Assembly (NCBI GenBank): GCA_903917705.1 | Contig: CAIXBQ010000141.1 | Coordinates: 26,861 to 90,860, forward strand | Length of the DNA stretch: 64,000 nucleotides | Direction of reading: 5' to 3' | Source: an uncultured Verrucomicrobia subdivision 3 bacterium | Lineage (GTDB): Bacteria > Verrucomicrobiota > Verrucomicrobiia > Limisphaerales > UBA11358 | Program-made: the position numbers and the translations under genes | Notes under the pieces: generated by a model | What the model saw: only the letters and a program-made list of their open reading frames with translations | Told to the model about the DNA's origin: nothing | Database searches by the model: none | In this document: one piece after another, positions 12,139-33,004 of the stretch | How the letters are laid out: each line of letters begins with the position of its first letter | Position numbering within the stretch: the first letter of the stretch is position 1

Positions 12139-12207
12139 TTGATTGGCCGGAGCATACCGCAGCCGGAAAAATTGTACCAGCCACGATCACCGCGCCGGCT
12201 TCCGGAT

Positions 12208-12455: not shown

Positions 12456-12487
12456 TCCGGGACAGGCTGAACTATTGTTTGCGGCGC

Positions 12488-12727
12488 ATGCCCGACAAAC
12501 ATTATCGCAGTCTCGTCAAAGCCGTCTCCTGGCGGCTCACCGGCAGTATGGACACCCTGCTCATCTCCTTCCTCATCACCGGGCAATTGCGATGGGCGCT
12601 GACCATCAGCGGCGTGGAATTGTTCACTAAAGTCGGGCTGTATTACGTGCACGAGCGCGTCTGGGAAAATCTGTCATTCGGCCGAGTGAAACAGCCCCCC
12701 AAAGACCGGCCCACCTTCGACATCTGA
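12488..12727 (+). CDS. DUF2061-family small membrane protein
   Basis: RSLVKAVSWRLTGSMDTLLISFLITG...GVELFTKVGLYYVHERVW matches the DUF2061 signature as I remember it. The start was taken at the internal Met (MPDKHYRS). Confidence 0.6.
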   Translation: MPDKHYRSLVKAVSWRLTGSMDTLLISFLITGQLRWALTISGVELFTKVGLYYVHERVWENLSFGRVKQPPKDRPTFDI

Positions 12728-12839
12728 ATCCTTCCGGACTCCTTGCGGAGGGTCACCAGTCCGTGCCGGACGGGCCATCAGGGACTCCGTGGGAGGTGAA
12801 TGGGGCTGCGCATAATCTGACAGCCCTACCTCACCCCGG

Positions 12840-12872
12840 CCCTCTCCCTCCCGCTTTGCGGGCCGGAGAGGG
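12840..12872. repeat. REP-like GC-rich hairpin (CCCTCTCC..CCCGC-TTT-GCGGG..GGAGAGGG)
   Basis: Nested stems seen directly. Related to the hairpin at 8684..8711. Confidence 0.65.
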
Positions 12873-13068
12873 AGAAATTACGTGATCGTCTATACCCCGG
12901 GTGGCGTCGGCCTGACAGCCGACTTACCCGGGGCTACTATCTGGTCGCCCCTCCAGGGCTGCGCGGGCCGGAAGGGGTCCGTGCCGGACGGGCCAAGATT
13001 GCAGACGCGAGAAACACGCGTCAACGGATCAAAGCCGGCGCGGCGGACCGCGGGCGGCGTTAATCCGA

Positions 13069-15930: not shown

Positions 15931-16014
15931 ACCGCCCGGGCGATACTTTTTTAATGACACGACGACCCGCGGCGTCAAGAATACCGGTTTGAATCCGCCG
16001 CCGAATCACAACGC

Positions 16015-16728
16015 ATGACCGTCACCCTTTTCATCCCGTGCTTCGTGGACGCGCTGTATCCGCGCGCGGGCATCAGCATGGTGGAAATCCTCGAACGCCT
16101 GGGCCACACCGTGATCTGCCCGGAGGCAATCGCCTGCTGCGGCCAGCCGCCCTTCAATTCCGGCTACTGGGACGAGGCCCGCACCATCGCCCGGCCGGTG
16201 CTGGAATCATTGAAGGCGGCGGAAGCGGTGGTCATCGGCTCCGGCTCCTGCGGCGCGATGGTGAAGAAGTTTTACCCCGAGCTGTTCGCCAACACGGATC
16301 ACGCCGAACTGGCGAAGCAGGTGTCGGCCCGGACGTGGGAGTTCTCGGATTTCCTGGTCAACAAGCTCGGAGCGACCGACCTCGGGGCGACGTTTCCGCA
16401 CAAGGTCACGTTCCACGACGGCTGCCACGGCCTGCGCGAGCTCGGCATCCAGAAACAACCGCGCGCGCTGCTGGCCAGCGTCCGCGGCCTGGAACTGGTC
16501 GAGATGGGCGAGGTGTCGTGCTGCGGCTTCGGGGGGACGTTCGCCGCGAAGTTTCCGATGATCTCCACCGCGATGGGCGAGGTGAAATGCGCGGCCGCGG
16601 CCGAGACGAACGCGGAATACATCGTCTCCAGCGATTCGAGCTGCCTGATGCACATCCAAGGACTGCTGTCGCGCCAGGGCAAGCCGACCAAAACCATCAG
16701 CCTGGCCGAGGTGCTGAACCACAAATAA
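16015..16728 (+). CDS. lutA: L-lactate dehydrogenase complex, Fe-S oxidoreductase subunit LutA/LldE (CCG domains)
   Basis: MTVTLFIPCFVDALYP...CCGQPPFNSGY...CCGFGGTF. Typical LutA/YkgE protein. Confidence 0.9.
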   Translation: MTVTLFIPCFVDALYPRAGISMVEILERLGHTVICPEAIACCGQPPFNSGYWDEARTIARPVLESLKAAEAVVIGSGSCGAMVKKFYPELFANTDHAELAKQVSARTWEFSDFLVNKLGATDLGATFPHKVTFHDGCHGLRELGIQKQPRALLASVRGLELVEMGEVSCCGFGGTFAAKFPMISTAMGEVKCAAAAETNAEYIVSSDSSCLMHIQGLLSRQGKPTKTISLAEVLNHK

Positions 16729-16775
16729 TTTTTGCCACAGATGGACACAGATGGAACACAGAAGGGCATCAGCGC

Positions 16776-18176
16776 ATGAGCTTTGTCTCCCAATTCAAGG
16801 CGCAGGCCGGCGAGAAGACGCGCGACCTACGGCACCGACAGTTCATCCGCACGGCGCTGCGAGGCTATGAAACCGCCCGCGACAAGCGCAAAGGCGCGTT
16901 CCAAAGCTGGGAGTCGGCGCGGCAAGCCGCCGCCGAGACAAAATGGGAGGCCATCAACCACCTCGACGAACACCTGGTCGCGCTGACCCGCCAACTCGAG
17001 GCGCGCGGGACGAAAGTCCACTGGGCCAGCACCGGCGCGCAAGCCCGCGAAATCATCGCGCAGATCCTCCGCGACAAGCAGGCACGCTGCATCATCAAGT
17101 CCAAGGCGATGACATCGGAGGAGATCCATTTGAACGACGCGCTGGAAAAGGAAGGCTTCACCGTAGTCGAGTCGGACCTGGGCGAATTCATCGTGCAACT
17201 CCGGCACGAGACGCCGTATCACATCGTCTTCCCCTCGATGCACCTGACGCGCGGCGAAATCCGCGAGCTATTCCAGCGCGAACTCGGCGACGCGCCGTCG
17301 GACACCCCCGAAGATCTGACGATGGTGGCGCGCCGCGTGATGCGGCAGAAATACATCACCGCCGACGTGGGGTTCACCGGGGCGAACTTCGCCATCGCCG
17401 AGACCGGCATGATTTCCATCACGGAAAACGAAGGCAACTCGCGCCTCACCGCCGCGCTGCCCAAGACGATGGTCACGCTCATCGGCATCGAGAAGGTGCT
17501 GCCGCGGTTCGCCGACCTGGCGCTGTTCCTGCCGATGCTGGCCACCGCCGGAGCCGGCCAGCCGATGACGTGCTACAACACGATGTACTCCGGCCCGCGC
17601 CAGCCCGGCGAAGCGGACGGCCCGGAAGAATGGCACGTGGTGCTGCTGGACAACCGCCGCACGGAACTCCTGGCCGACACCGAGCAGCGCGACGCCCTGC
17701 ACTGCATCCGCTGCGGCGCGTGCCTGAACGTCTGCCCGATTTTCCGCAATGTCGGCGGCCACACCTACGGCACCACCTACAGCGGGCCGGTCGGCGCGGT
17801 GATCACGCCGCACCTGCGCGGGCTGCAGGAGTGGAAGCATCTTTCCAACGCCTCGTCGCTCTGCGGCGTCTGCACCGAGGCCTGCCCGGTGAAAATTGAC
17901 CTGCACCATCACCTGCTGCAAAACCGGCGGAATGCCTCCGCCAGCCAACCCGCCTTCCTGGAAAAGCTGGCGTACAAGATTTTCGGCATCGTGGCGAACG
18001 AGCCGGCGTTCTGGTCGCTGGCGAAGAAACTTGGCTGGCTCACGCAGCCACTGCACGACGCGGTGAAAGGCTCGGCGCTCGACCCGGCCAGGGCATGGAC
18101 CAAGACGCGCGACCTGCCGCCAATGCCCCGGGAAACATTCAAAGACTGGTGGCGGAAAAGGATGAAGGCAGAATGA
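16776..18176 (+). CDS. lutB: L-lactate dehydrogenase complex, iron-sulfur subunit LutB/LldF
   Basis: Starts at the in-frame ATG MSFVSQFKAQAGEK. Has a LUD domain plus CIRCGACLNVCP and CGVCTEACP ferredoxin motifs. The first 246 codons of listed ORF 16038..18176 are an out-of-frame overlap of lutA. Confidence 0.9.
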   Translation: MSFVSQFKAQAGEKTRDLRHRQFIRTALRGYETARDKRKGAFQSWESARQAAAETKWEAINHLDEHLVALTRQLEARGTKVHWASTGAQAREIIAQILRDKQARCIIKSKAMTSEEIHLNDALEKEGFTVVESDLGEFIVQLRHETPYHIVFPSMHLTRGEIRELFQRELGDAPSDTPEDLTMVARRVMRQKYITADVGFTGANFAIAETGMISITENEGNSRLTAALPKTMVTLIGIEKVLPRFADLALFLPMLATAGAGQPMTCYNTMYSGPRQPGEADGPEEWHVVLLDNRRTELLADTEQRDALHCIRCGACLNVCPIFRNVGGHTYGTTYSGPVGAVITPHLRGLQEWKHLSNASSLCGVCTEACPVKIDLHHHLLQNRRNASASQPAFLEKLAYKIFGIVANEPAFWSLAKKLGWLTQPLHDAVKGSALDPARAWTKTRDLPPMPRETFKDWWRKRMKAE

Positions 18177-19024: not shown

Positions 19025-20773
19025 TCAGTAGGCAAGGTTCTTGTGGTCCTTGCCGTGGCAACTCAAGGTGCAATTGCCATGGTTCATGCCGGTGGAGGAA
19101 TAGTTGATCACGCCATGGAGGGGCTGGACATAGGCAGTGTTAAAATTGATCAAGTGAGGCTGGGTGGCGGCGTGGGAATCATGGCAGGTTGTGCAGGCGG
19201 CCTTATAGTCTTCGATATGCGTCCGATGATTCGGCCAGCTCGTGGCAAGGGAACTGTCCACCACGGAACTGCTGTGGCATTTATAGCACAGAGCGAAATT
19301 CGCGGGATTGTAGGGGCTGCCATCAGTCAGGAGCAACATCCGCTCAAGCAACGGCGCAAAGGCCGACCCGTGCGGGCCATTCGCACCGGCACCGCCGGTG
19401 GCCGACCCCTGATCATTGTTATGACAATCGCCGCAGCCGACCAGGCTGGAAGTCGTCAAGGGCGGGATGAGGCTGGGCACGCCGGCATTTTTGCCGACGC
19501 TTTCCAGCGGATGGAACGAGGTGCTGCCGGGATTAAATTCCAGGCGGGTGTTGGTCTGCACAAACTGGCGCGGGACAAGGGCGGGGCCGCGACCGGCACT
19601 GTCGCCGTGGCAGCGAAAGCATAATTCATATTCGTGAATAACGGCGGGGAGCCGGCCACCACCCGCGCTGACGCCGGCGACGCCGGCCAAGGCGCCGGCG
19701 ACCTGAGTTTTCGCACCGGGAGCGCCACTGGAGGCATGCGGATTATGGCAATCCACGCATGTCACGTGACGAACCGGCGGGTTCACCAAATCCTCGCGCG
19801 CATTATGCGCGTCCGGCTCCATCGAAACAGGATGGGCGCTAAGCTTCTTCAAATCCACCGAAACATTCTTCCCAGGACCATCACCGGCATGACAGTCAAT
19901 ACAGTTTTTTTCCGGGGTGGAAAACCGCATCAACTCGAGTTTGGCGCCGGCGGCATGGGGCACATGGCAACTGGCGCAGGCGGTGTGCGCCACCGAGGCG
20001 GATACGGAAGCCTTGATAAGGTTGCCGTTTTTTGCCGGCCCAACTTGAACCGCGAGAGCCACCGGCAGCAGTTTACTGGAAACCGCATGGGCAGAGCCCG
20101 ACCAGTCGGGCAAGGTGTGACAAGTCAAGCAGAGCGCCGAACCAGTATTATCCCTGACCAGAAAACTTCCGTATTGATTGTTATGCGGGTCATGGCAGGT
20201 GGTGCATTGGAGCTGGCCGTTGCGATCCAAGGCGACTTCAGGCGGGAGGGTTCCGGGATCAACCAAATCGCCGGCGGCGGTGGCAAGGGGCGCATCATAA
20301 GTGAAGGAAACCGGATGATCCGAAGAAAGGTCAGTGCCCAAATTGTCCAGGCCGGCCGGCATGGCGGCGGTGTTCATGGAAATGCCACCCGCGCGGCTCC
20401 CAACCAGCCCCAGGGCAACCGTGCCATCGTGGCAGCTCAAGCAAAGGCGGGACGAACCGTTCGGCTGGCCGATGGTCACGTTCAAAGCCGTCAGCGTAGC
20501 GCTGCTATAGGGCGTGTAAGCCGCCGCGGACATCTGGTGATTCCAAAGCGGGCCGTCGGTGGCAGAGGCCCCGTGCGGCGCATGGCAAAACACACACACG
20601 TCCGACTCCGTGGTCGCGTGAACCGGGCCGGGACTGCTGACCGAAAGATTGTGGCGTGAATAAATGATGCTATTGGGATTGTCGGCAAAGGCGGCAAGAG
20701 CCAGGAAGACCAGACCGACCACCACCGCGGAAAGACGCTGGCGGCCCGAAACAAATTGCGGCGCGCGATTCAT
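19025..20773 (-). CDS. Secreted dodecahaem c-type cytochrome (11 CXXCH plus 1 CX3CH), built from three tetrahaem modules
   Basis: Signal peptide LVFLALAAFA/DN. Motifs CVFCH, CLSCH, CTTCH, CLTCH, CASCH, CIDCH, CVDCH, CFRCH, CGDCH, CYKCH, CTTCH and CTLSCH. The start overlaps the stop of the upstream NHL gene (20770..20773). Confidence 0.85.
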   Translation of the reverse strand: MNRAPQFVSGRQRLSAVVVGLVFLALAAFADNPNSIIYSRHNLSVSSPGPVHATTESDVCVFCHAPHGASATDGPLWNHQMSAAAYTPYSSATLTALNVTIGQPNGSSRLCLSCHDGTVALGLVGSRAGGISMNTAAMPAGLDNLGTDLSSDHPVSFTYDAPLATAAGDLVDPGTLPPEVALDRNGQLQCTTCHDPHNNQYGSFLVRDNTGSALCLTCHTLPDWSGSAHAVSSKLLPVALAVQVGPAKNGNLIKASVSASVAHTACASCHVPHAAGAKLELMRFSTPEKNCIDCHAGDGPGKNVSVDLKKLSAHPVSMEPDAHNAREDLVNPPVRHVTCVDCHNPHASSGAPGAKTQVAGALAGVAGVSAGGGRLPAVIHEYELCFRCHGDSAGRGPALVPRQFVQTNTRLEFNPGSTSFHPLESVGKNAGVPSLIPPLTTSSLVGCGDCHNNDQGSATGGAGANGPHGSAFAPLLERMLLLTDGSPYNPANFALCYKCHSSSVVDSSLATSWPNHRTHIEDYKAACTTCHDSHAATQPHLINFNTAYVQPLHGVINYSSTGMNHGNCTLSCHGKDHKNLAY

Positions 20774-21834
20774 GGTTTGCTGAGATAGCGAAACATCTGG
20801 AGCCGATGATTGTAGGCATCAGCCACGAAAATTTCATTTTTGGAATTGATTACGATGGCATTGGGGAGGCAGAACTGGCCGGCGGCGGATCCCGCCCCGC
20901 CCCAGTCCAGCAACAACTGGCCAGCCTCGTCAAAAATCTGCACATTATTAAAAACACCGTCCACGACATAAACGTGCCCGTCGCGGTCCACGGCCACGCC
21001 CTTGGGCCGGCTGAAACACCCCGGTCCGTCGCCCGCGCTGCCGAAGGCGCGCAGGAAGCGACCATCCGGGTCAAAGACCTGAATGCGGCAATTCAAAGAA
21101 TCCGTGACATAGATGCGGCGATGGCCGTCCACGCTGACGTGCGTGGGGAAATTGAATTCGCCCGGCCCAAGCCCCCGGCGGCCAAACCGGGAAATGAATT
21201 CGCCTTGCAGCCCGCAGACAACAATCTGGTGGCGCTGCGAGTCCGCGATCAGCAAATGGTCGCCGGCCAGCGCCAGACCGGCGGGCCGCTCGAGACCGTT
21301 GGTGATGGCAAACCGAATTTTCCCCTGCTCGTCAAAGGCCAGCACCTTGCCCAAGCCGGAGTCAGCGACAAAAAATGTCGGCCCGCGCCGGACGGCGGAC
21401 ACCGGCGACAAGAAGGGGGTGCCGCCAACCGATGACCAGCGCAGCCATTTTTTACGGGCGAAGTCCAGATAACAAACCGTGGCGGAACCGGTGTCGGCGA
21501 CCAGAAGATTGCCCGCCTCGTCCAGGGAAAGTCCGAAAGGCCGATTCAATTTCTGCCGGCCATTGTTGACCCCGGTGATCCAGTTGGCGAACCGGAGCAA
21601 CGCCGCCGGGCGGACCCCGATATCCGGCGGCCCGGAAATATCCCGCACATAAACCACGCGCGGTTCGGCGGGCGGCGGCGGCCAGGCGGGGGCCGGTTTA
21701 GACCCGGCGAGCGCAGACAGCGGGAAGAGCAGACCGAGCCACGCCGCAAAAACAAAAATGCTCCGGAACCGCAAACCACCGGGGCACGGTGGCGACGGCG
21801 ACGCGGAGGGAGATGATTTCAGCAAACGTGACAT
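20770..21834 (-). CDS. Secreted NHL-repeat six-bladed beta-propeller protein
   Basis: Repeated NHL units (G.F..P.G(V/I)AVD..G..YV(A/V)D..N.R(I/L)Q(V/M)F). N-terminal hydrophobic signal FVFAAWLGLLFPLSALAG. Confidence 0.8.
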   Translation of the reverse strand: MSRLLKSSPSASPSPPCPGGLRFRSIFVFAAWLGLLFPLSALAGSKPAPAWPPPPAEPRVVYVRDISGPPDIGVRPAALLRFANWITGVNNGRQKLNRPFGLSLDEAGNLLVADTGSATVCYLDFARKKWLRWSSVGGTPFLSPVSAVRRGPTFFVADSGLGKVLAFDEQGKIRFAITNGLERPAGLALAGDHLLIADSQRHQIVVCGLQGEFISRFGRRGLGPGEFNFPTHVSVDGHRRIYVTDSLNCRIQVFDPDGRFLRAFGSAGDGPGCFSRPKGVAVDRDGHVYVVDGVFNNVQIFDEAGQLLLDWGGAGSAAGQFCLPNAIVINSKNEIFVADAYNHRLQMFRYLSKP

Positions 21835-21835
21835 A

Positions 21836-23857
21836 TCAGAAAGATCGCCTCAGATAGGTGAAGAATCGATGTTTAATGCGTTCTTCCGACCAACCGCCGG
21901 CCGCGGTTGACTGGGAGTTAAATTCATAGCCGGCGCGCAGGCTCAATTTGCCGCGCGTCCAGCCCAGACCGGTACGCGCCATGCCCTGAACCAGCTGGTT
22001 GCCAGCCACCTGCTGCACCAGGCCGCCGCCCTCGACATACCACTTGATGGACATCGGCAGCAAGGTATTGTAGCGGGCCATGAACTGGTATTGCGACTGG
22101 TCCGGACTGCCGGGGTAAGTGTAAAACGATTGGCTGAAATCCAAACTCAACGAGGACACGCCGGTCAGGTCGAACTCAAAATTCTGGAATAAACGCAGCG
22201 ACTGATACCGGGTAAAATTGGAATCGTAGCTTTCAAGTTCCGCGCCGGTGCGGAACCACTTGCGATGATAATCCACACCGCCGACCAGATCGGTGAGCGT
22301 CTGGGTGAGCACCACCGGCGGCGCATTGTTATCGAGCCAGTTCACCCGACCGTAAACACCGAATCGATTGAACAAATCCAGCCGGAACTGGCCATTAGCA
22401 CTGAAGGTGTCGTAGGAGCTGCTCCCCACCGGATCGCTCTGGTAGGTAACCGTGACCGAAAGATTGTCATTCGTTTGCAACAGGCCCTGAAGATGACTGC
22501 CGGGCGGAACCACCAGTTTGATTTCCGTCAATTCACCGGAATGAACGATCGTGTAGTCCGCCGGATTGGCGAGCGTATCAGCTCCGGCGCTGACGACAAT
22601 GGTGGAATCAACGACCCGGGGACGGTTTAAATAGACCGGGTGGTAGCCGAGGCTGGTGGACAGATAAAGCTGATGCGGCTCCGCGAACGTCGTAAGCATG
22701 GCGCCGGAGGAATCCTGATCCTGATGGTCGACCACGAGTCCGGTTCCCACCGCCAGCCGGCCCCACGATTGCAAGCGCTTGGTATAATTTTCAGACAGCC
22801 CGAGCCCATATTGATCAAAAGTGGAACCGCCCCCGGCCGCAGTGTCCTCCTGATGCGTGCCATGGCCTTCGAGACTGGACGTGAGACTTTCGTAAAGCTG
22901 ATGACGGACACCGGCGGTGCCCTGCACCCGCGAAGAAACAATGGGATTCAACTCACTGCGGTTGAAATTCATCATCAGGTAGCTGTCCAGATTGGGCCGG
23001 TGGTTGACGAGCAGGTTTTCACTCGCGTTCAAGGTGTCAATCTGCTGCCCGGAATAATCGGACTGGCTGTAACTCAAGCCGGTGCCGGCATTGATCTGCT
23101 TCCGATGGCCGAACGTTTCTGAATCGGAAAGGCCCGCCGACCAGTTGCTGGTATCCAGGCGGCTGCCATAATTCAAAACATTTTCCAACTCGCTGGCATG
23201 CAAACTCAAAGTCGTCTGGCCGGATTTCCGCTGATGGATGCCAAGGAAATTAAAATATGTTTCGGTGATCTGCGAGGAATCCGTCAGGCCGGAAGCCGTC
23301 TCGTCGCGATACCCCAAATCCGCGTTCAGGCTGAACTCGCCCGCATTGCAATTAATGCGTCCGCCGTAACGATTCGCGTCCACCGTGTAGGTATTGAAGG
23401 TGCCGTAGTCGCGGAAGGTGTGGTCTTGCGCGGCGAAGACGGAGACATTGTAAGGCTTGGCCGAAAGCAGATTGAACTGGGCCAGATAACGGAGCAATTC
23501 CGCGCTCTCATTGCGGGTCTGCCCAGAGCCCGGACCACCGGACGTCATGTTGTCCCAGCCCCACCCCAAGTCGCCGCTCAAATCAAACGCCAGGAGGTTG
23601 GGATGATAAATCGAACCGGTGGTATGGAGTCCCACCAACGGCGTAACGGAAGTATGATCGTAGGTGCTGCTGCCACCGCTGACCCGCGTCTGTTCCGTGG
23701 AACCTTCCGCCTCGACGCCCACGCTCACCTCGGGCAGGCCGTTCAACTTGAACCACTCGGGGTCTTCCGCCCGAACCGCGGGGGCAATACCCGCCGCAAA
23801 ACCGAGGACGGACAGGCCGGCGAACCAGCGATAGCGATGGAAACACCCCAAATTCAT
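21836..23857 (-). CDS. Large outer-membrane beta-barrel protein (porin-like, family unknown)
   Basis: 673 aa. Signal peptide ...GIAPAVRA/EDP. Long runs of alternating polar/hydrophobic Y/G/S/T/N-rich strands. C-terminal ...FFTYLRRSF ends in an aromatic residue, as in BAM substrates. Its start overlaps the stop of the 15-haem gene. Confidence 0.7.
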   Translation of the reverse strand: MNLGCFHRYRWFAGLSVLGFAAGIAPAVRAEDPEWFKLNGLPEVSVGVEAEGSTEQTRVSGGSSTYDHTSVTPLVGLHTTGSIYHPNLLAFDLSGDLGWGWDNMTSGGPGSGQTRNESAELLRYLAQFNLLSAKPYNVSVFAAQDHTFRDYGTFNTYTVDANRYGGRINCNAGEFSLNADLGYRDETASGLTDSSQITETYFNFLGIHQRKSGQTTLSLHASELENVLNYGSRLDTSNWSAGLSDSETFGHRKQINAGTGLSYSQSDYSGQQIDTLNASENLLVNHRPNLDSYLMMNFNRSELNPIVSSRVQGTAGVRHQLYESLTSSLEGHGTHQEDTAAGGGSTFDQYGLGLSENYTKRLQSWGRLAVGTGLVVDHQDQDSSGAMLTTFAEPHQLYLSTSLGYHPVYLNRPRVVDSTIVVSAGADTLANPADYTIVHSGELTEIKLVVPPGSHLQGLLQTNDNLSVTVTYQSDPVGSSSYDTFSANGQFRLDLFNRFGVYGRVNWLDNNAPPVVLTQTLTDLVGGVDYHRKWFRTGAELESYDSNFTRYQSLRLFQNFEFDLTGVSSLSLDFSQSFYTYPGSPDQSQYQFMARYNTLLPMSIKWYVEGGGLVQQVAGNQLVQGMARTGLGWTRGKLSLRAGYEFNSQSTAAGGWSEERIKHRFFTYLRRSF

Positions 23858-25209
23858 CTGGCCGGCGGCGGCGCCTGGCCGCCCGTTTTATTCACCGCAC
23901 CGGCCTTGAGCAAATACTTGTCACCGCCGACATGCGGATCATGACACGCCGTGCAAGATTTTCCCGCGGCGCCGGCATGACCCTTGACCGCCTGCAAATC
24001 CTTATCGTCATGGCAGTCGCCGCAGAGCTTCAAAATGTTTTTGGCGAGCAAATGGGACTCCGCCGACTGGTGCGGCTTGTGGCAGCCGGTGCAGTCCTCG
24101 ACCACATCGTGCTTGAACCTGGCCTTCTCCAAAAAATTGTCGTGGCATTCCCAGCACAGGGCCGGCGGGGATTTCTTCACCATGGCCTTTTTGTCGGTCG
24201 CATGGGGGTTGTGGCAGGCCGTGCAATCGCCGTCGGCCACGGGCTGATGGACGACCTTGGCGGTCTTGGACGGAAGGTCGTCGTGGCAACCCGCACACGT
24301 CTCCTTGACCGGCTTTTTCAGCAGGCCTTTGATGTTTCCCGCGTGGGGATTGTGACACTCCAGACAATCACCGTCGCCGACCGGCTGATGCACAACTTTT
24401 TTGGTCCCAATAAGGTCGTCATGACAGCCCAAGCAGGTCTCCTTGACAGGTTTTTTGAGGAGCTTCTTGATTTTGCCGGCATGCGGCGTGTGACATTCCA
24501 GGCAGTCCCCATCGCCCACGGGCTGGTGAACCTTTTTTTTGTTTCCGATCAGGTCATCATGACATTCAAGACAGGTGTCCTTGACAGATTTTTTCAGCAG
24601 ACTTTTGAAATTGGTGGAGTGAGGCGCGTGGCAGTCGGTGCATTCGCCCGCCTCAACCGCCTGATGCCTGACCTTACCGGCGGCGAGCGGGTCATCGTGG
24701 CAAGTCAGGCAGAGCGCCGGGACGGGTTTCTGCAGAAGTTTTTTGTTCGGCGAATGGTGCGGATTGTGACAACTCTTGCAATCGCCCTCATCCACGGGCT
24801 GATGCTTGATCTTGCCGGCCAGAAAATTCGTATGCAGCACCGTGTGGCAGACGAAGCAGGCCTCGCCCGGCTTGCCCCGCATGGCATTGGAAAATTGGGA
24901 TTCGTGGCAGGCGGTGCAATTCCGCGCCGCGAACGGCGGGTGCATGACCTCTTTTGGCATCGGCGGCCGAGCCACCACCGGCGCCGGAGCATTGGTTGCC
25001 TGCGGGGCGCGCGGATCCCCGGCGACAACGACCGGGGCGTTGGTGACGCCGCCCAGCGGCGGAACGCCGTCAAAGAAAACCGACAGCCACGCATGCCGCT
25101 TCTCCGTGCTGCAACCGAACAGCAGCGACAGGGCGCAAAGCACAAGGCAGCCCCCCCCCGCCCGGCGCCAAGCCCGGCGGTAAATAGATTTTGAAAGTGG
25201 CAAACTCAT
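23854..25209 (-). CDS. Lipoprotein pentadecahaem c-type cytochrome with tandem 46-aa dihaem modules
   Basis: Lipobox LLFGC. 15 CXXCH motifs. Repeated unit VHQPVGDGDC.ECH.PHAG.IK.LLKKPVKETC.GCHDDL. Confidence 0.85.
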   Translation of the reverse strand: MSLPLSKSIYRRAWRRAGGGCLVLCALSLLFGCSTEKRHAWLSVFFDGVPPLGGVTNAPVVVAGDPRAPQATNAPAPVVARPPMPKEVMHPPFAARNCTACHESQFSNAMRGKPGEACFVCHTVLHTNFLAGKIKHQPVDEGDCKSCHNPHHSPNKKLLQKPVPALCLTCHDDPLAAGKVRHQAVEAGECTDCHAPHSTNFKSLLKKSVKDTCLECHDDLIGNKKKVHQPVGDGDCLECHTPHAGKIKKLLKKPVKETCLGCHDDLIGTKKVVHQPVGDGDCLECHNPHAGNIKGLLKKPVKETCAGCHDDLPSKTAKVVHQPVADGDCTACHNPHATDKKAMVKKSPPALCWECHDNFLEKARFKHDVVEDCTGCHKPHQSAESHLLAKNILKLCGDCHDDKDLQAVKGHAGAAGKSCTACHDPHVGGDKYLLKAGAVNKTGGQAPPPAR

Positions 25210-25233
25210 TCTTCCCTGAAAAAACCCCCAGCC

Positions 25234-26325
25234 TCAAGGTGTGGCCGGCTTTTTTAGAAACCCATAAACGCTGACCTTGTTCGGGCCGAACTGGCTGGTA
25301 ACCAGAATCAAGTAGTCACACTGGCAACCCGGCGCGAGGTATTTCTGAAAATACCCAAGGTGGTCGTAATCCACCTTGATGGACGCCGGCAGCGTCAGTT
25401 GACCGCGCGTGCTGGTGCCCGGCTGGCCGAAATACATAAGCAGCCGGCCCTCCGCATCAAAGATCTGCACCACCTGCGTGGCGGCATCCACCACATAAGC
25501 CCGGCCCTGATGATCCACCGCCACGCCTTTGGGGCGGGCAAAGCTTCCCGGCGCCAAGCCCTGCCGCCCGAGCGTTCGCAGATATTTTCCGTCTAGGTCA
25601 TAGACCTGGACCACAAACCCGCCGACATCGGACACCAGCAACCGGCCGTTCTGGTCCAGCGCCAGGTTGGCGGGGGAATAAAGGGTTCCCGCGTTGGTCG
25701 CGGCGCTATTGGCGGCCGGGATGGTGAACAAGAGTTGCTGATCCGCCTTGCTATAAACCCGGACGACATGATTGAGCATGTCGCCCACATAAATCCGGTT
25801 GGTCGAAACCGCCACGTCCGCCGGCTTCATCTCGTCTTTTTTCCCGATGGCACTTAAAAAATTGCCGTCGTTGTCATAGATCACCACCTGATTCCGGCCG
25901 GTATCGGCCACATACCGCGTGCCGTCGGCATCAATGGTGAGATTAATCGGCGTCCGGAGTTTCCCCTCGCCCGGCGGAGCGAAGTAAGCCGCCCGGTGTT
26001 TGTTCAGGTCAAACACCTGGATCATGCTGCCCACGGTGTCGCAAACATAGATTTTGCCGCCATGCAACGCCAAACCGTAAGGCTTGACGAGACTGCCCAC
26101 CGGCTGTTGCCCGGTGATAAAATCGCCAAAAGTCCTGGTGCGCCCCAGCTCAGCATCAGAGGAGAACGAAGTCAGAAATTGAATCCGCGGCTCATCCGGA
26201 GACGGCGGGAAAAAAGTGTAACTCGTCCTGGCGGCGGGCTTGGTGGCGGCGCAGCCAGCCAGCAACCACAGCAAAAGGCAGCTGCCGGACATCCAAACAA
26301 GCCCGCGTTTAATCATGAAGATCAT
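25234..26325 (-). CDS. NHL-repeat beta-propeller lipoprotein
   Basis: Start taken at MIFMIKRGLVWMSGSCLLLWLLAGC (lipobox LLAGC). NHL units such as GRNQVVIYDNDG, LNHVVRVYS and ATQVVQIFDAEG. Confidence 0.8.
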   Translation of the reverse strand: MIFMIKRGLVWMSGSCLLLWLLAGCAATKPAARTSYTFFPPSPDEPRIQFLTSFSSDAELGRTRTFGDFITGQQPVGSLVKPYGLALHGGKIYVCDTVGSMIQVFDLNKHRAAYFAPPGEGKLRTPINLTIDADGTRYVADTGRNQVVIYDNDGNFLSAIGKKDEMKPADVAVSTNRIYVGDMLNHVVRVYSKADQQLLFTIPAANSAATNAGTLYSPANLALDQNGRLLVSDVGGFVVQVYDLDGKYLRTLGRQGLAPGSFARPKGVAVDHQGRAYVVDAATQVVQIFDAEGRLLMYFGQPGTSTRGQLTLPASIKVDYDHLGYFQKYLAPGCQCDYLILVTSQFGPNKVSVYGFLKKPATP

Positions 26326-26616
26326 GGGTAAATTCGTATTATAAATCAGCTCGAAGGCCGCGTTCGGCGCTCCAAGAATGGCCAACAAAGTTACACGCCC
26401 AAGCCAGAAAAACCAAGCGTCTTTTCCCGCCGAGTTATCAAGCCTGGCCCGGTTTTCCGCACATTCAGGTGCCGGCAATCAAACCGGCGCAAAAAATAGT
26501 CCGTTAAAACCGCCCCGAGACCCGGTCCCGTTTGCCAGGCCCGATAAAAAGCGGGCTTTGGTCAACCGATTTGACCAAAGCCCGCGCGATTCCAATCAAG
26601 CAACGAGACCTAACGA

Positions 26617-29004
26617 TTACTGAACCAAGATAAACTTGGTGCGGGTCAACGGCGAACCGTCAACCGTGCAGGTCACCGAGTAAAGACCCGGAGTGTTGTA
26701 GATATATGTCGGGTTGGCGCCAGTGGTGGATCCGCCATCCCCGAAAGTCCAATTATACACACCGCCGCTGCCGTAGCTATTGCTGAACGACACCGACAAC
26801 GGAGCGGAACCCGAGACCACGCTGGCCGAGAACGCGGCCGGATAGTTGCTGGTGACAAACTGGTTCATCACCCGGCTTTCCGCATCCGCGAGCAGCGATT
26901 TCACATAGGTCGGATTATGGACACCATAGCTCTGGTCTTCATAAATCCAATAGAGGCTAAAACGCGCCGTGCGAATGTCCTGCGGAACCGTTGACAACTG
27001 GAGGTTGTCATTGGTGCCGGACGGGACAAGGCCGAACGCGGGATTGTAGGCCTTGGGCGGGCCGACGCTGAACACCTTGCCGGCACCATTGGTAGATTTA
27101 GCGCCGAAATAAGCGAGCGGGCTGGGGTACTCCCAGGCGCACGTCCCGTAATTCGTCCGGAGGATAGCCGGAGCCACGGTGCTGCCCCATTGCTTCAACA
27201 GGGAGACCACGCGGTCCATGCTATTGGACACGGCGGCCTTGGAGTTGAAGGTCTTGGCCACCAACTGCGGCGCGGTCAAAGCGGAATGGCACGAGGCCAG
27301 ACAGCCGGCGTTATCCGAAACGAACGAGTGACCGGTGACATTGGTGCCGGCATTGACCGCGTAGCCCGGCACATGGCAGTCGGCACACTGGTTGGGTGCC
27401 AGGGTGTGAGGATCCGTGAGCACGTTTGCGGGACCGCCGCGCGCAGCCAGGTCATCATTCAACTGGCCGATGACCACGTTGTACTGCACGGGATAGTGCG
27501 GCGCATAATCGCCGGCGCTATTGCTGCTGTAATAAACCGTGCCACCATTGGTGTAGGCAATGAGCGGATAATAGATCCCCACGCCAACCACCGGATTGGT
27601 TGAGGTCGAAACAACATAGGATTGGTAGGTCACAGGATTACCCTGGATATTGGTGAACACCTGGCCGTATATGTTGGTATAAACCACGCTGTTCGTGGTA
27701 TACGCACTCACCAGATTGGTCGTTGTGATGGCCACCAGGTTGGTCACATAACCATAGGTCGAACCATCCCAGCGCGGACCGGCTCCGCCGATACCGCCGC
27801 CGCCACTATGGCACTGGCCACAGACCTGAACCTTGGGATTATAATACTGATCAAACACATTGTTCAGGGTGAGAGTATTAGTGGTAAACGTCCCGTTGTA
27901 ATTTGTGATGACCGCCGTGGTTGTCAGCAAAAGCGGCACCACATGGCTATAGTTGGTGGAGAAGGTAGGATAACGCAACTGGGCGACATAATTGGACGAA
28001 TGCGGGTCATGGCAGGTCGCACAGGCGGCCGCCCCGACCGAACCCATAGCCCCCGCGAATGAACCGGGGAACAAGGTCAGCGGATGCGGGCTGCCCGCCT
28101 TGTTGTCATAATATTCCTTGACCATGACCATGCGCTGGTCGGCCAAATGGCAAACCTGACAAGCTCCACTGTGGCTACCGACGCTATGGCCCACGCTGCC
28201 TTTGATAATGCCCATGGGCAGATTGGTAACACTGCTGGCAATAATATTGGTGTACTCCTGGAAGGTGGGATGCAGACTGCCCTGATGGCAACTGCCGCAG
28301 ATGTTCGGATCCAAGCTGACCACCGGAAGGATCAGGGCGTGGTCGCTGTTCTTGTGCCAGCCAGCCGGGCCGTGGCAGTTTTCGCAGCCTACGTTCTCCA
28401 GGTTGGGGGTGGTCGCGGGATCCACAAAACCGGTCTGCTGGCCATAGCCAACGGTCAGGCACGCCAGCGAGAACCGGTTGGAAACAGCCGGATTGCTATA
28501 AACCCCCGAATGCGTGGTCTTTTTATATGGGGTGTATTTGTTACCGTGACAACCGGCACACTGGTCAGAGCCGGCATAGCTGTTGGCCTGGGCCAACCGG
28601 AAGCTATAACTGTTGGTCGGATCGGGCTTGGGTGCGGTGAAGGTCCCGGCAAAACTCGACGAGATCACGGTGCCAAGGGTGAGCCAAGGTCCTGTGACGA
28701 TATTCGTGGTAGCCTGGATGCTATACCACCCGTTCACGCCAAACCATTTCAAGGTGAAATTGGTCGGGGTGTTGGTCGGGGTAAATGTGACCGTGGGGTT
28801 CTGATAGGCCGCAGCGCACACGCCGCCACCGGAGTTAAACGGGGCCAGGGTGCCCGCCACGTAATTGGAGGCCAGCCCGTATTGATTCGTCTGCGGCGGC
28901 AGCGACAGCGACTGTGCCGTGGCCGCAAACACACCGCCCAGCAGCAAACCCGTCGCCAAGACGGATTGTGCGCGGCGCATGAGATTATGGTTCATTAGTT
29001 TCAT
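26617..29004 (-). CDS. Secreted multihaem c-type cytochrome (7 CXXCH plus 1 CX3CH) with a C-terminal PKD domain
   Basis: Start at MKLMNHNLMRRAQSVLATGLLLGGVFAATAQS. Motifs CAGCH, CENCHGP, CGSCH, CQVCH, CATCHDPH, CGQCH, CADCH and CLASCH. C-terminal PKD signature YNWTFGDGGSTTGANPTYIYNTPGLYSVTCTV. Confidence 0.8.
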   Translation of the reverse strand: MKLMNHNLMRRAQSVLATGLLLGGVFAATAQSLSLPPQTNQYGLASNYVAGTLAPFNSGGGVCAAAYQNPTVTFTPTNTPTNFTLKWFGVNGWYSIQATTNIVTGPWLTLGTVISSSFAGTFTAPKPDPTNSYSFRLAQANSYAGSDQCAGCHGNKYTPYKKTTHSGVYSNPAVSNRFSLACLTVGYGQQTGFVDPATTPNLENVGCENCHGPAGWHKNSDHALILPVVSLDPNICGSCHQGSLHPTFQEYTNIIASSVTNLPMGIIKGSVGHSVGSHSGACQVCHLADQRMVMVKEYYDNKAGSPHPLTLFPGSFAGAMGSVGAAACATCHDPHSSNYVAQLRYPTFSTNYSHVVPLLLTTTAVITNYNGTFTTNTLTLNNVFDQYYNPKVQVCGQCHSGGGGIGGAGPRWDGSTYGYVTNLVAITTTNLVSAYTTNSVVYTNIYGQVFTNIQGNPVTYQSYVVSTSTNPVVGVGIYYPLIAYTNGGTVYYSSNSAGDYAPHYPVQYNVVIGQLNDDLAARGGPANVLTDPHTLAPNQCADCHVPGYAVNAGTNVTGHSFVSDNAGCLASCHSALTAPQLVAKTFNSKAAVSNSMDRVVSLLKQWGSTVAPAILRTNYGTCAWEYPSPLAYFGAKSTNGAGKVFSVGPPKAYNPAFGLVPSGTNDNLQLSTVPQDIRTARFSLYWIYEDQSYGVHNPTYVKSLLADAESRVMNQFVTSNYPAAFSASVVSGSAPLSVSFSNSYGSGGVYNWTFGDGGSTTGANPTYIYNTPGLYSVTCTVDGSPLTRTKFILVQ

Positions 29005-29121
29005 ATTATTTTTTGTTGGTTCATGCGCCGTCACGAGGACCGCCCGGCCAGCCGCCGCCCCAACGGGCGGTCGACAGGCACGGGCAATCGATTCATAAGC
29101 GGGCACAGCGGACGTAGCTGA

Positions 29122-29853
29122 TTACTTGTTATGGCAACTGCGGCAGAGCAAGCTGCCGACGCCACCGGCGGTGCCGTTAATTTTGACGAGGTGCGGATTG
29201 TTAACAATGTTATACGGCGAACCTTCCTGGTTGTGCACGTCGTGGCAGGAATTGCACTCCAGATTGCCCTGCTGATTGAGCAAGAAACCCCTGATGCTCA
29301 TGTCGTTGCCGGGCGTGAAACCGGGCGAATTGGCGTCCGGGGCCAACACGGGGTTCGCGGAGTCATAGATCCACTTGTCCTGGCCCGGGCCCGTTCCAAC
29401 GATGGACTGGTAGTTGAAGGAGATCGGATGCGAGTGGGTCAGATTTTTGCTGTTTTCGGAGATGGCGGCACCGTTGGTGATATATTCCGAACTCGCGACA
29501 CTGCCATAGGCATTGACCGCGATGGAGCCGTCATGGCAGCTCAAGCACGCCAGGGAACTGCCGGTCGGAGCCGACGCCGGAGTATATTTGATGTTGGCTC
29601 CCGGAGAAGCGCCATTGGCATACATCTGCCATCCCGAGGCGGAAATTGCCGTATGACCCCAGAGCGGGCCGGTGTTGGGATCGGCATGGTGGGGCGTGTG
29701 ACACACAGCACAGACCGTGGCCGGATTGGCCGGGTCGTTATTCCACGCACGGGAGTGGAAATCATGCGGACTGCCAAGGATGCCCGCCCGGGCGGTCAAG
29801 GTCAGCAGGGAGCCTGCGACCACGGTCAGAGTGAGGAGGTGTGTGTTTTTCAT
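29122..29853 (-). CDS. Small secreted tetrahaem c-type cytochrome
   Basis: 243 aa. Signal peptide LTLTARAG. Motifs CAVCHTPHH, CLSCHDG, CNSCHDVH and CRSCHNK. Collinear with the first module of the dodecahaem protein. Confidence 0.85.
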   Translation of the reverse strand: MKNTHLLTLTVVAGSLLTLTARAGILGSPHDFHSRAWNNDPANPATVCAVCHTPHHADPNTGPLWGHTAISASGWQMYANGASPGANIKYTPASAPTGSSLACLSCHDGSIAVNAYGSVASSEYITNGAAISENSKNLTHSHPISFNYQSIVGTGPGQDKWIYDSANPVLAPDANSPGFTPGNDMSIRGFLLNQQGNLECNSCHDVHNQEGSPYNIVNNPHLVKINGTAGGVGSLLCRSCHNK

Positions 29854-30062: not shown

Positions 30063-31148
30063 TCAAGCACGACAAACCGAGGCCCCATCAATCGTCCAGC
30101 CGGGCGCGGTCTCAACCGCGACCGGGGCACGCCGGGCATAGGGCGAATTAAATCGCTCCATCAATTCCATCACGTGTTCGGCAATGATCTGCCGGCACAC
30201 CGCGAGCTCCTGCTCGCGATTTTTGGTGTTTTCGCGAACGACGGCTTCCAGATCATCGATATCATAAAGGTAGACGTCCGGAAGTTCCGCCACCGCCGGG
30301 TCGATGTCGCGCGGCACCGCGATGTCCACCAGCACCAGCGGCCGGTGCCGGCGCGCGGGCAAAATCTTCGCCACATCCTCGCGTTTCAAGACAAGGTCGG
30401 GGCTGCCGGTCGAGCTGACGAGAATGTCCGCCTCGGTCATCGCCGCCGCCGAATCCTCGATCCGCACGGCGCGGCCGCCAAATTCCGCCGCCAGCCTCTC
30501 CGCGCGCTCGAACGAGCGGTTGGAAACGAGGACGGTTTTGGCTCCGCGCTTGGCCAGATGTTTCACGCAAGCCTCACCCATCTTGCCCGCGCCCAAAATC
30601 ATCACGGTCTTCTTGCTCAAATCCCGGTCGAACACTTTTTCCGCAAGTTCCACCGCCACACTGCCCACCGAGGTCGCACCGCGGCCGATGCCGGTGTTCG
30701 TGCGGACGGCCTTCACCACCGACAAGGCGGTCTGGAACAGCCGGTTCATCTTCTTACCCACGAGGCCGGCGTCCTTCGCCGCCTGATACGCGGTCTTGAC
30801 CTGGCCGGTGATCTCCGTTTCGCCGATCACCAGCGAGTCCAAACCGCTGGCCACCGCAAAGAGATGTTCCGCCGCCGCGGCGCCTTCCTTGACGTAGAGA
30901 TGCGGGGTGAAATCGAAATCGCTGCCGGTAAGCTCCTGAAACAGCCGCTGAACGCGGCCCTGAATCCACGGGGCCACGCCATAGATCTCGACGCGGTTGC
31001 AGGTGGAGAGCAGGACGACCTCGGCGAGATTGCCGCGCAGCTTGAGGCGGCAGCCGCAGCATTGCAAGCGCGAGCGGTGGACCGCGAGTTTCTCGCGCAC
31101 CTCCACCGGCGTGGTCTTGTAGCTCAAGCCTGCAACAAAGATATTCAT
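30063..31148 (-). CDS. hemA: Glutamyl-tRNA reductase
   Basis: MNIFVAGLSYKTTPVEVREKLA...LSTCNRVEIY...ILGAGKMGE. Canonical HemA. Confidence 0.9.
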   Translation of the reverse strand: MNIFVAGLSYKTTPVEVREKLAVHRSRLQCCGCRLKLRGNLAEVVLLSTCNRVEIYGVAPWIQGRVQRLFQELTGSDFDFTPHLYVKEGAAAAEHLFAVASGLDSLVIGETEITGQVKTAYQAAKDAGLVGKKMNRLFQTALSVVKAVRTNTGIGRGATSVGSVAVELAEKVFDRDLSKKTVMILGAGKMGEACVKHLAKRGAKTVLVSNRSFERAERLAAEFGGRAVRIEDSAAAMTEADILVSSTGSPDLVLKREDVAKILPARRHRPLVLVDIAVPRDIDPAVAELPDVYLYDIDDLEAVVRENTKNREQELAVCRQIIAEHVMELMERFNSPYARRAPVAVETAPGWTIDGASVCRA

Positions 31149-31279: not shown

Positions 31280-33004
31280 TTAGATTTCCTTACCGCTCTC
31301 GAGGGTGCCCGGCGGGTCAGCGCGGAGCTGTTCCGCCGCGGGTTCCAGCGGATGTTCATGCAACTGAAACTCCTCGGAAATGCGCCCGTCCAGGCAGGCG
31401 GTATTAAGCGGGTAAACCTCCGGATCAAAGATGACGTGATAGAAATGCCAGACGATGATGGCCAGGCAGGCCAAAACCGCCTCGTAATAGTGGATGGTCG
31501 TCGCCACGGTCACCACCCACCGCGGCAGCCATTGCGTCACGTCAATCTTCAGCCAGATGGCCAAGCCGGTCGCGCCCATGATGATCGTGCCCCAGACCAC
31601 CGCCCAGTACTCCATCTTCTCGGCATAACCGAAACGGCCGATTTTTGGTTTCGATTTCGTGAAGCCACCCAGGTAACAAACGGCGTGCCACACGTCAGCC
31701 GCATCTTTTTTTACCGGGAACAGGTCGGCCACCAGTTTCCGTCCGTCACGGGTGGCGAGGAGATAAATCACGTGATACAAGCCGACCCCGAGCAGGATGA
31801 TGCCGGCGATGCGGTGCGTCCAGCGGCGGAACGGCTCGCTCGAACACATCACTTTCGCCAGCCAGGAATCGGGGAATTTCAGGGCGAAGCCCGTGATGGC
31901 CAGCACGATGAAGCTGGAGGCCAGCAGAAAATGCTGCCAGCGCTGCGACGCCGTCATCCGCACCACGGGTCGCTCCGTCATGCGCAGCCGCGCGGCCGTC
32001 TTCTTGAGGAACAAAATTCCGTTGTGGGCCAGCATGCCGCCGATGGTGCCGAAAATGAGAAGCATATAGATGTTCCGCACCCAGCGGTTCAACCGGCTGC
32101 CAAAATCAACCCCGCCCGCCTGTCCGTCCGGCGCGACGTGGATTTTGCCCAAGGAGAACTCGGTGTTCGCGCCCGGATGACATTTGCCGCACGTGGTCAC
32201 CAAGTTTGCCTTGCTGATGGTCGAGTTGGTGTCCGACGACGGCAGAATCTTATGGTAGCTGTGGCAACTGGCGCAATTCGCCGCGACGGTGGAACCATAT
32301 TGCGCTGCGAGGCCGTGGTAACTTTCAAAAAAGGTTTTCACCCGGTCCGCCGGCAGATTGTATTTGGTGTTCAACCGCTCGGACGAATGGCAGCGGCTGC
32401 ACACATCCTCGGAAATGGTCATGGTTGAACTCGTCTTGAGCGAACGGATTTTATGGTCGTCATGGCAGCCCGTGCAGGTCGGCGCGTCCTGCGAGCCGGC
32501 GGCCACCGCCTTGCCGTGGACGCTCGCCTGCCATTCGCGCGCCTCCTTGTCATGGCACGCGCCGCAGGTTTCCGCCTGACGCGCAAAATAGATCGGCGAG
32601 GTGGGCGAACGATCGCTAATGATCTCATGGGTATCATGGCAGTCGCGGCACGTGGCCGCGTCATCATGGCCGGATTTCAAGGCCAGGCCGTGAACGCTCG
32701 AATTGTAGCTTTCCGTCTGCCGCGCGTGGCACAAGCCGCAATTGACCGGGGCCAACGGCTTGCCGTCGTCGGGATGCTTGGTCGTGAGGTCCGCATGGCA
32801 ACTGATGCAGGAGTTGGTCTTGTGGGCGGACAATTTCAATTTGGCCGCATCCACGAACAATGAAATGGCCTTGCCGGCGGAATTGGTCTTGAACAGCGTG
32901 TTATCGCCATGGCAGTCAAGGCAGTCGCTATTTTTCAAGCCGGCCAGGGCCGGCAGCGCCGCGAGCATGAACAAGGTGAACAAAATGGGGAGACAGCGTT
33001 TCAT
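31280..33004 (-). CDS. Inner-membrane nonahaem c-type cytochrome fused to an FdnI/HydC-like dihaem cytochrome b (CbcL-like quinol oxidoreductase)
   Basis: Signal peptide plus 9 CXXCH motifs (CLDCH, CISCH, CGLCH, CRDCH, CGACH, CTGCH, CSRCH, CASCH, CGKCH). These are followed by about 5 TM helices carrying conserved His residues (RWQHFLLASSF, THRIAGIILLGVGLYHVIY, TTIHYYEAV...VWHFYHVIF). Confidence 0.8.
   Translation of the reverse strand: MKRCLPILFTLFMLAALPALAGLKNSDCLDCHGDNTLFKTNSAGKAISLFVDAAKLKLSAHKTNSCISCHADLTTKHPDDGKPLAPVNCGLCHARQTESYNSSVHGLALKSGHDDAATCRDCHDTHEIISDRSPTSPIYFARQAETCGACHDKEAREWQASVHGKAVAAGSQDAPTCTGCHDDHKIRSLKTSSTMTISEDVCSRCHSSERLNTKYNLPADRVKTFFESYHGLAAQYGSTVAANCASCHSYHKILPSSDTNSTISKANLVTTCGKCHPGANTEFSLGKIHVAPDGQAGGVDFGSRLNRWVRNIYMLLIFGTIGGMLAHNGILFLKKTAARLRMTERPVVRMTASQRWQHFLLASSFIVLAITGFALKFPDSWLAKVMCSSEPFRRWTHRIAGIILLGVGLYHVIYLLATRDGRKLVADLFPVKKDAADVWHAVCYLGGFTKSKPKIGRFGYAEKMEYWAVVWGTIIMGATGLAIWLKIDVTQWLPRWVVTVATTIHYYEAVLACLAIIVWHFYHVIFDPEVYPLNTACLDGRISEEFQLHEHPLEPAAEQLRADPPGTLESGKEI

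Follow-up and report, generated by a model that had tools for sequence, protein, structure and literature searches.

Two NHL propeller genes, very probably a conserved pair, in an OmcE-type cytochrome cluster of a Verrucomicrobiota bacterium

We analyzed a 64,000-nucleotide stretch of DNA from an uncultured Verrucomicrobia subdivision 3 bacterium (contig CAIXBQ010000141.1 of assembly GCA_903917705.1, positions 26,861 to 90,860; hereafter, the window), in which two genes for NHL-repeat propellers, NHL1 and NHL2, lie among genes for multihaem cytochromes. Very probably, the two represent the conserved NHL propeller pair of an OmcE-type, uet-like gene cluster for extracellular electron transfer. 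Across phyla, such propellers form two ancient groups, each with its own OmcE-fold neighbor, a point that is new and that we did not find in the literature examined. As for their specific role, we suggest, tentatively and with some doubt, that the propellers may act as escorts of their cognate OmcE-fold cytochromes at an outer-membrane barrel. Taken as a whole, identity and proposed mechanism together form the explanation that we favor with moderate confidence. The propeller genes and the neighbors that bear most directly on their identity are as follows.

NHL1: 20770..21834, minus strand; 354 amino acids (aa), a six-bladed NHL propeller with a signal-peptidase-I-type signal peptide.
NHL2: 25234..26325, minus strand; 363 aa from ATG, a six-bladed NHL propeller lipoprotein.
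Tetrahaem cytochrome: 29122..29853, minus strand; 243 aa, an OmcE homologue.
15-CXXCH cytochrome: 23854..25209, minus strand; 451 aa, with c7-type, doubled-CXXCH repeats and a lipobox (LLFGC, Cys33).
Putative large outer-membrane beta-barrel: 21836..23857, minus strand; 673 aa, with a signal peptide.
Multihaem cytochrome: 19025..20773, minus strand; 582 aa, with 11 CXXCH, a C-terminal CX3CH and an OmcE-like N-terminus.

A preliminary description, made from the sequence alone, had reported six-bladed NHL propellers at 20770..21834 and 25234..26325; both open reading frames (ORFs) were recovered at exactly these coordinates, and Pfam, AlphaFold2 and Foldseek agreed on the fold. Against the Pfam NHL profile (PF01436; gathering cutoff, 20 bits), NHL1 scored 100.5 bits (E = 2.1e-29) and NHL2 63.4 bits (E = 1.2e-17). 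By sequence, the best solved relative of both was Thin (6d69), with E = 2.8e-52 for NHL1 and E = 1.9e-37 for NHL2. AlphaFold2 models, computed from input alignments of 42 and 45 sequences, predicted six blades of four strands each for NHL1 (predicted local distance difference test (pLDDT), 84.6; predicted template modeling score (pTM), 0.79) and for NHL2 (pLDDT, 86.3; pTM, 0.82). In these models, blade 6 is closed by an N-terminal strand (residues 59-66 in NHL1 and 48-54 in NHL2), which is preceded in both proteins by a conserved W/F-P-x-P-P-x-x-P-R motif; in NHL2, this blade additionally carries a helix insert at 323-329. Foldseek searches matched the models to the NHL domains of Thin, TRIM2 and TRIM3, with template modeling scores (TM-scores, normalized to target) of 0.84-0.88 for NHL1 and 0.82-0.87 for NHL2. 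At 30% identity to each other (E = 2e-41), the two proteins are paralogues. The NHL2 ORF allows a possible longer form starting from a TTG at 26478.

To place the pair in its genomic setting, relatives were collected by an NHL1-seeded scan with one genome per species, which returned 340 relatives; the best 80 loci were kept for synteny counts, and 72 of these, with a recognizable pair of NHL1-type gene and cytochrome gene, entered the detailed counts. Locus gene content was read by tblastn and ORF-level blastp, and taxon names are the labels of the genome records. Among the best 80 loci, the closest (80-81% identity) suggest that the window derives from a Limisphaerales-like genome. Most loci carried Verrucomicrobiota or Limisphaerales labels, and further ones were labeled Kiritimatiellota, Lentisphaerae, Omnitrophota, Nitrospirota, Gammaproteobacteria, Binatia, Syntrophus and Aromatoleum. 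Four loci (L001, L013, L029 and L043) are labeled ‘uncultured Bifidobacteriaceae’ yet contain a Verrucomicrobia-type cluster at 55-81% identity; these labels look wrong.

A homologue of the 582-aa cytochrome gene adjoins NHL1 in all 80 loci. In the detailed counts, the gene downstream of the NHL1-type propeller encodes at least ten CXXCH motifs in 64 of 65 complete genes, the barrel gene lies directly upstream of it in 56 of 62 cases and a second NHL gene is present in every one of the 55 loci with at least 6.5 kb of upstream DNA. The preliminary description had asked whether propellers and cytochromes are co-localized in related genomes as well, and these counts answer that they are; synteny across phyla rules out chance co-location. 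The second NHL gene stands directly beside a gene for a 4-5-haem OmcE-like cytochrome in 36 loci, and in 16 loci only an insertion encoding an 829-aa cytochrome lies between the two. In phyla of the PVC group (Planctomycetota-Verrucomicrobiota-Chlamydiota and relatives), the recurring order is [CbcL-like] - hemA - 4-haem OmcE-like - [829-aa] - NHL2 - periplasmic cytochrome (5-23 haems) - barrel - NHL1 - 11-haem. Loci from outside the PVC group are rearranged and retain two NHL genes, each beside OmcE-like cytochromes. The same NHL-cytochrome pair was also seen on a Planctomycetota-labeled contig. Two loci are extended: in L019 (about 12000-16490) and L058 (downstream of 12690), after the standard cluster come an additional cytochrome of 10-13 haems, OmcE-like at its N-terminus, and then a third NHL protein of larger size (496-560 aa).

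The two propellers of each cluster belong to separate lineages. A neighbor-joining tree of 141 propellers, computed without bootstrap, resolved two deep clades, both of which span multiple phyla and are marked by a gene context of their own: members of the NHL1-type clade always follow the barrel gene and precede the 11-haem gene, and those of the NHL2-type clade always stand beside the 4-5-haem gene. As an independent check, hidden Markov models (HMMs) trained only on the Nitrospirota and Syntrophus propellers of each context classed all 122 propellers of other phyla in accordance with their genomic context. The agreement of tree and HMMs with gene context therefore indicates that the pair goes back to an old duplication, with each copy keeping its OmcE-fold neighbor. 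BLAST best-hit labels, by which upstream propellers from outside the PVC group looked ‘NHL1-like’, gave way to the assignments from the tree and from the HMMs applied across phyla.

Two of the cytochromes support the assignment to an OmcE-type cluster. As a single sequence, the 243-aa tetrahaem protein matched the OmcE filament of G. sulfurreducens (7TFS; E = 3.8e-10) and the OmcE bundle of D. soudanensis (9YUQ; E = 9e-10). A family profile built from 24 orthologues matched both over their full length (E = 1.5e-43 and E = 1.4e-39, respectively), and matched the six-haem OmcS weakly (E = 5e-9). Invariant in this family are four CXXCH motifs (C48/C51/H52, C103/C106/H107, C200/C203/H204 and C237/C240/H241) and four further histidines (H30, H55, H142 and H207). 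The 582-aa cytochrome is OmcE-like at residues 17-219 (7TFS, E = 5.3e-26; 9YUQ, E = 7.7e-22). The preliminary description had called this protein a dodecahaem cytochrome. Its CXXCH count is 11, but an additional C-terminal CX3CH (CTLSCH, residues 568-573) is kept in 61 of 64 orthologues, and, judging from these motifs, the protein probably binds 12 haems.

Two further components are encoded between the propeller genes. The 451-aa cytochrome, which we presume to be periplasmic or inserted in the barrel, contains eight Paired_CXXCH_1 matches (E = 4.4e-89); its orthologues carry 5-23 haem motifs, a range that implies modular growth of the c7-type repeats. For the 673-aa protein, searches of Pfam, NCBIfam and the PDB gave no match, and a profile search against the PDB gave none at E ≤ 1. 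Its C-terminal Phe is invariant across 28 orthologues, a hydrophobic helix is absent and a crude count gave at least 20 amphipathic alternating segments. The genes in this region are tightly packed. A 4-nucleotide ATGA holds both the stop codon of NHL1 and the start codon of the 582-aa cytochrome gene, bearing out an overlap described previously; another 4-nucleotide overlap joins the 451-aa cytochrome gene to the barrel gene, and a gap of 1 nucleotide separates the barrel gene from NHL1. The earlier statement that each propeller gene sits directly between multihaem cytochrome genes is right for NHL2, which lies between the genes for the 829-aa and the 15-CXXCH cytochromes, and has to be amended for NHL1, whose upstream neighbor is the barrel gene.

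The signal sequences are as the preliminary description had them: NHL2 carries the lipobox LLAGC (Cys25), and NHL1 has a signal peptide of the signal-peptidase-I type (LSALA/GSK) that lacks a lipobox Cys. A lipobox census of orthologues found the motif almost always in the NHL2 type. In the NHL1 type, it was present in most lineages and absent from the closest clade of the window. Because NHL1-type propellers keep their lipobox in most lineages, the predicted contrast between a soluble and a lipid-anchored propeller is a local loss and no design principle. The proposal that different anchoring puts the two proteins at different positions in the envelope is thus not supported, as the contrast is specific to one lineage and NHL1-type orthologues outside this clade mostly have a lipobox.

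On the basis of these data, we propose the following mechanism. The propellers would lack a redox cofactor and would act as protein-binding accessory subunits in the periplasm or on the periplasmic side of the outer membrane. Each would bind its cognate OmcE-fold cytochrome and keep it at the barrel or bring it there, in a loose analogy to chaperone-usher systems. In this role, the propellers would govern secretion, anchoring or polymerization instead of carrying electrons.

The most serious rival, unlikely in our judgment but deserving of weight, holds that the propellers are static scaffolds, that is, permanent subunits that stabilize a complex through the outer membrane, made up of the barrel and the 15-haem and 11/12-haem cytochromes, without any filament. 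This is essentially the idea of the preliminary description and also what Deng et al. proposed for the NHL pair of D. ferrophilus (PMC5815863); a scaffold or docking role is thus already a speculation in papers on propellers and cytochromes. It agrees with the conduit reading that He et al. gave to a Verrucomicrobia cluster (PMC5615132) and with the location of NHL1 between the barrel and large cytochrome genes, with frames that overlap or abut. It accounts less well for the presence in the cluster of a full-length OmcE-family subunit with eight invariant histidines, a family that is a known filament former (7TFS and 9YUQ), and for the NHL2-type propeller, which stays beside the small cytochrome and not beside the barrel; even so, the present data fit either reading.

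Several points weigh against the escort reading. Possibly, the cluster forms a static conduit of porin and cytochromes; no filament is on record for any Verrucomicrobiota. We infer the pairing of propellers and cytochromes from gene adjacency only, and the count of one propeller per OmcE-like gene is not strict: locus L078, for example, has three small cytochromes and two propellers. The loss of the lipid anchor from NHL1 in the lineage of the window suggests that a fixed membrane position is dispensable. The barrel fold of the 673-aa protein is putative and derives from sequence features. Finally, the window propellers are likened to those of Geobacter, Desulfuromonas and Tenderia by description rather than by sequence, and the same applies to the barrels.

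The escort reading can be extended to a bolder model, which we regard as a long shot. Verrucomicrobiota that abound in peat, bogs and lakes would build OmcE-type filaments in a chaperone-usher-like manner, with one propeller escort per OmcE-fold protein. The OmcE-like domain at the N-terminus of the 11/12-haem cytochrome would allow this protein to serve as the base or initiator that joins the filament to the barrel conduit.

The two remaining alternatives, that the propellers are enzymes or surface adhesins, are less likely than either an escort or a static scaffold. In the first, they would be lyase-, lactonase- or ScyF-like enzymes that modify cytochromes or act on an extracellular humic or phenolic substrate, as might be suggested by the automatic names from the Joint Genome Institute (‘sugar lactone lactonase YvrE’ and ‘streptogramin lyase’). 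Matches to the Pfam family SGL (SMP-30/gluconolactonase) do exceed the gathering score (32.3 and 42.8 versus 26.3 bits), but they cover only about 73-137 of 246 profile positions, about a third, and lie beneath much stronger NHL matches of the same clan. The NCBIfam ScyF match (E~1e-37) reaches 130 bits against a cutoff of 350. The lyase PAL was matched at E~1e-8 by sequence and 2e-14 by structure (TM-score, 0.63-0.65), whereas the top matches are non-enzymatic NHL domains, with E = 1e-52 by sequence and E = 1e-23 by structure. These best matches are binding-type NHL domains (TRIM/Thin) and not enzymes, a result that supports the reading in the preliminary description. Residues conserved across phyla are mostly canonical repeat positions that recur in each blade. 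Two blade-specific histidines of NHL1, H202 and H232, lie outside the repeated NHL motif and are conserved in at least 90% of the 72 NHL1-type propellers across phyla, which speaks for an enzyme; on balance, we consider this option highly improbable. There is similarly little chance that the propellers are surface lipoproteins binding an electron acceptor or a surface (mineral, humic matter or another cell). In favor of this are lipoprotein signals and the precedent of NHL sensor domains outside the cell, such as that of PknD (1rwl). Against it, the propellers showed no signal for export to the surface, and NHL1 is predicted not to be lipidated in the lineage of the window. Moreover, each paralogue keeps strictly to its OmcE-fold genes in habitats as different as those of marine Gammaproteobacteria and peat Verrucomicrobiota, which favors a protein as the binding partner over an environmental ligand.

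In the window, the cluster comprises nine closely spaced genes on the minus strand (33004-19025). In addition to the six genes listed above, it contains the following features.

Cytochrome c/b fusion: 31280..33004, minus strand; 574 aa, with nine CXXCH and a membrane b-type cytochrome domain, at the head of the cluster.
Short glutamyl-tRNA reductase HemA (haem biosynthesis): 30063..31148, minus strand; 361 aa, TIGR01035.
PKD cytochrome: 26617..29106, minus strand; 829 aa, with 7 CXXCH, a CX3CH and a C-terminal PKD domain.
Terminator-like hairpin: 26551..26585, minus strand; a 15-bp stem (9 G-C pairs) with a trailing T-run, in the intergenic stretch that separates the 829-aa cytochrome gene from NHL2.

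Residues 349-528 of the 574-aa fusion match Ni_hydr_CYTB (E = 1.9e-14), the b-type cytochrome part is formate-dehydrogenase-gamma-like, and we take the architecture to resemble that of Geobacter CbcL. By this analogy, the protein is a probable inner-membrane quinol oxidase, which would give the cluster a self-contained path from the quinol pool to the outside. HemA scored 375.7 bits against TIGR01035 (cutoff, 209.55) and covers model positions 1-335 of 416; a homologue occupies the same place in 32 of the 80 loci, and this conservation suggests that haem supply is co-regulated with cytochrome production. Only the 20 loci most closely related to the window encode the 829-aa cytochrome, whose gene separates NHL2 from the OmcE-like gene and looks like a lineage-specific insertion. 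A terminator scan found 23 sites versus a shuffled expectation of 19.8, with the hairpin at 26551..26585 by far the strongest; a promoter scan was uninformative (6 sites versus 6.0 expected). Because of this hairpin, the cluster may be transcribed as two units, one of them made up of the five genes from NHL2 to that for the 582-aa cytochrome. The cluster ends at 19025, because the genes beyond are convergent metabolic genes. The flank encodes a GH106 alpha-L-rhamnosidase (9289-12138, minus strand), an FAD-linked oxidase fused to Fe-S and CCG domains (13069-15930, plus strand) and a LutB-like lactate-utilization protein (16038-18176, plus strand), which together fit the genome of a polysaccharide-degrading member of the Verrucomicrobiota.

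Of the machinery by which multihaem cytochrome filaments and conduits traverse the outer membrane and are fixed to it, recurring propellers are among the least understood parts. The existence of two propeller groups with their own OmcE-fold neighbors across phyla provides a concrete and testable pairing hypothesis, while no new kind of system is revealed. The locus also puts the OmcE-type parts list in Verrucomicrobiota of humic, anoxic habitats, where, as suggested in PMC5615132, humic substances could serve as acceptors of extracellular electron transfer and less carbon might then go into methanogenesis.

Among known systems, we considered membership in the Mtr/Pcc (OmaB-OmbB-OmcB) conduits and rejected it: curated cutoffs were not reached by the 451-aa cytochrome with the DmsE-family model TIGR03508 (185 versus 192.2 bits) or in the GSU2203-family comparison (149.8 versus 325 bits), and the barrel had no porin family match. 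Mtr and Omb/Oma/Omc conduits indeed contain no propellers, as the preliminary description pointed out; the novelty that this implied does not follow, since the window cluster is of another kind and the association of propellers with cytochromes has already been published.

Accessory proteins beside filament-forming cytochromes offer a looser parallel. A literature search on OscD and GSU0613-0619 returned nothing useful on the propellers of the Geobacter omcE cluster. OscD is reportedly propeller-like. According to Shen et al. 2025, as cited in PMC13194489, it has a role in nanowire morphology, and the products of the osc operon are proposed to fold and secrete OmcS filaments and to give them their shape. 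In G. sulfurreducens, the NHL gene GSU2505 adjoins omcS (PMC9070056). For the osc operon and GSU2505, the likeness lies in non-cytochrome accessory proteins, propeller-like ones among them, that stand beside a filament-forming cytochrome and are implicated in its assembly or morphology, and the differences lie in the filament subunit, which is the six-haem OmcS, and in the presence of a peptidyl-prolyl isomerase (PPIase) chaperone and a multi-protein channel.

NHL or beta-propeller proteins accompany multihaem cytochromes and barrels elsewhere as well. The occ cluster encodes ‘6-NHL repeat proteins’ together with multihaem cytochromes, as in the window (bioRxiv 10.1101/695007). In D. ferrophilus IS5 (DFE_0448-0451 and DFE_0461-0465), two NHL genes are co-expressed with multihaem cytochromes (PMC5815863; PMC9769857), and their products were proposed to stabilize an outer-membrane cytochrome complex (PMC5815863). 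The window shares with D. ferrophilus a pair of NHL propeller genes set among genes for multihaem cytochromes; unlike in the window, the genes are split over two clusters, and the likeness is one of description and not of sequence.

The uetABCDEFGHIJ cluster of ‘Ca. Tenderia electrophaga’ and some Gallionella, proposed for electron uptake, has the NHL genes uetH and uetI directly before that of the undecahaem UetJ and additionally encodes a tetrahaem cytochrome, a barrel and trihaem cytochromes (bioRxiv 10.1101/2022.05.06.490989; PMC10734462). The window shares with it a tetrahaem cytochrome (UetA-like), a barrel (UetC-like), a c7-type cytochrome, two NHL proteins and an 11-CXXCH cytochrome directly after NHL1 (UetJ-like), and two gammaproteobacterial loci of our set (L062 and L066) have the same parts with homologous NHL and 11-haem proteins. 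It differs in that PPIase (UetB) and cupredoxin (UetF) domains are found in none of the nine window cluster proteins, that one 15-haem protein replaces the trihaem cytochromes and that the gene order is different. With the gammaproteobacterial orthologue of L062 as query, a search returned more than 4000 matches, none of them Tenderia-named, and Uet proteins were compared by description only.

Within the same phylum and type of habitat, He et al. 2017 found in Verrucomicrobia metagenome-assembled genomes from Trout Bog a porin of at least 20 strands beside a multihaem cytochrome of the periplasm, to which an extracellular one is added in some cases, and read the set as a porin-multihaem-cytochrome conduit; OmcE goes unmentioned, and neither ‘NHL’ nor ‘propeller’ appears in the text (PMC5615132). 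Compared by description, this cluster and that of the window probably belong to the same cluster family.

The closest counterpart is the omcE cluster of Desulfuromonadia. Besides OmcE itself, minimal omcE clusters encode a large barrel, a pair of beta-propeller lipoproteins and two multihaem cytochromes, and the preprint that describes them names five phyla, Verrucomicrobiota not included (bioRxiv 10.1101/2025.10.22.684050). The window matches this inventory with its OmcE-family tetrahaem cytochrome, two propellers, a putative large barrel and two further multihaem cytochromes (15-CXXCH and 11-CXXCH plus CX3CH). OmcE of G. sulfurreducens and of D. soudanensis is known from solved structures (7TFS and 9YUQ), and both propellers of the minimal clusters are lipoproteins, whereas the window cluster is known from its genes alone and its NHL1 lacks a lipobox. 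The window further differs in the OmcE-like N-terminal domain of its large cytochrome and in the addition of the CbcL-like gene, hemA and the 829-aa PKD cytochrome. The window cluster is the OmcE-type parts list in Verrucomicrobiota, a new setting for a propeller-cytochrome association that was already known.

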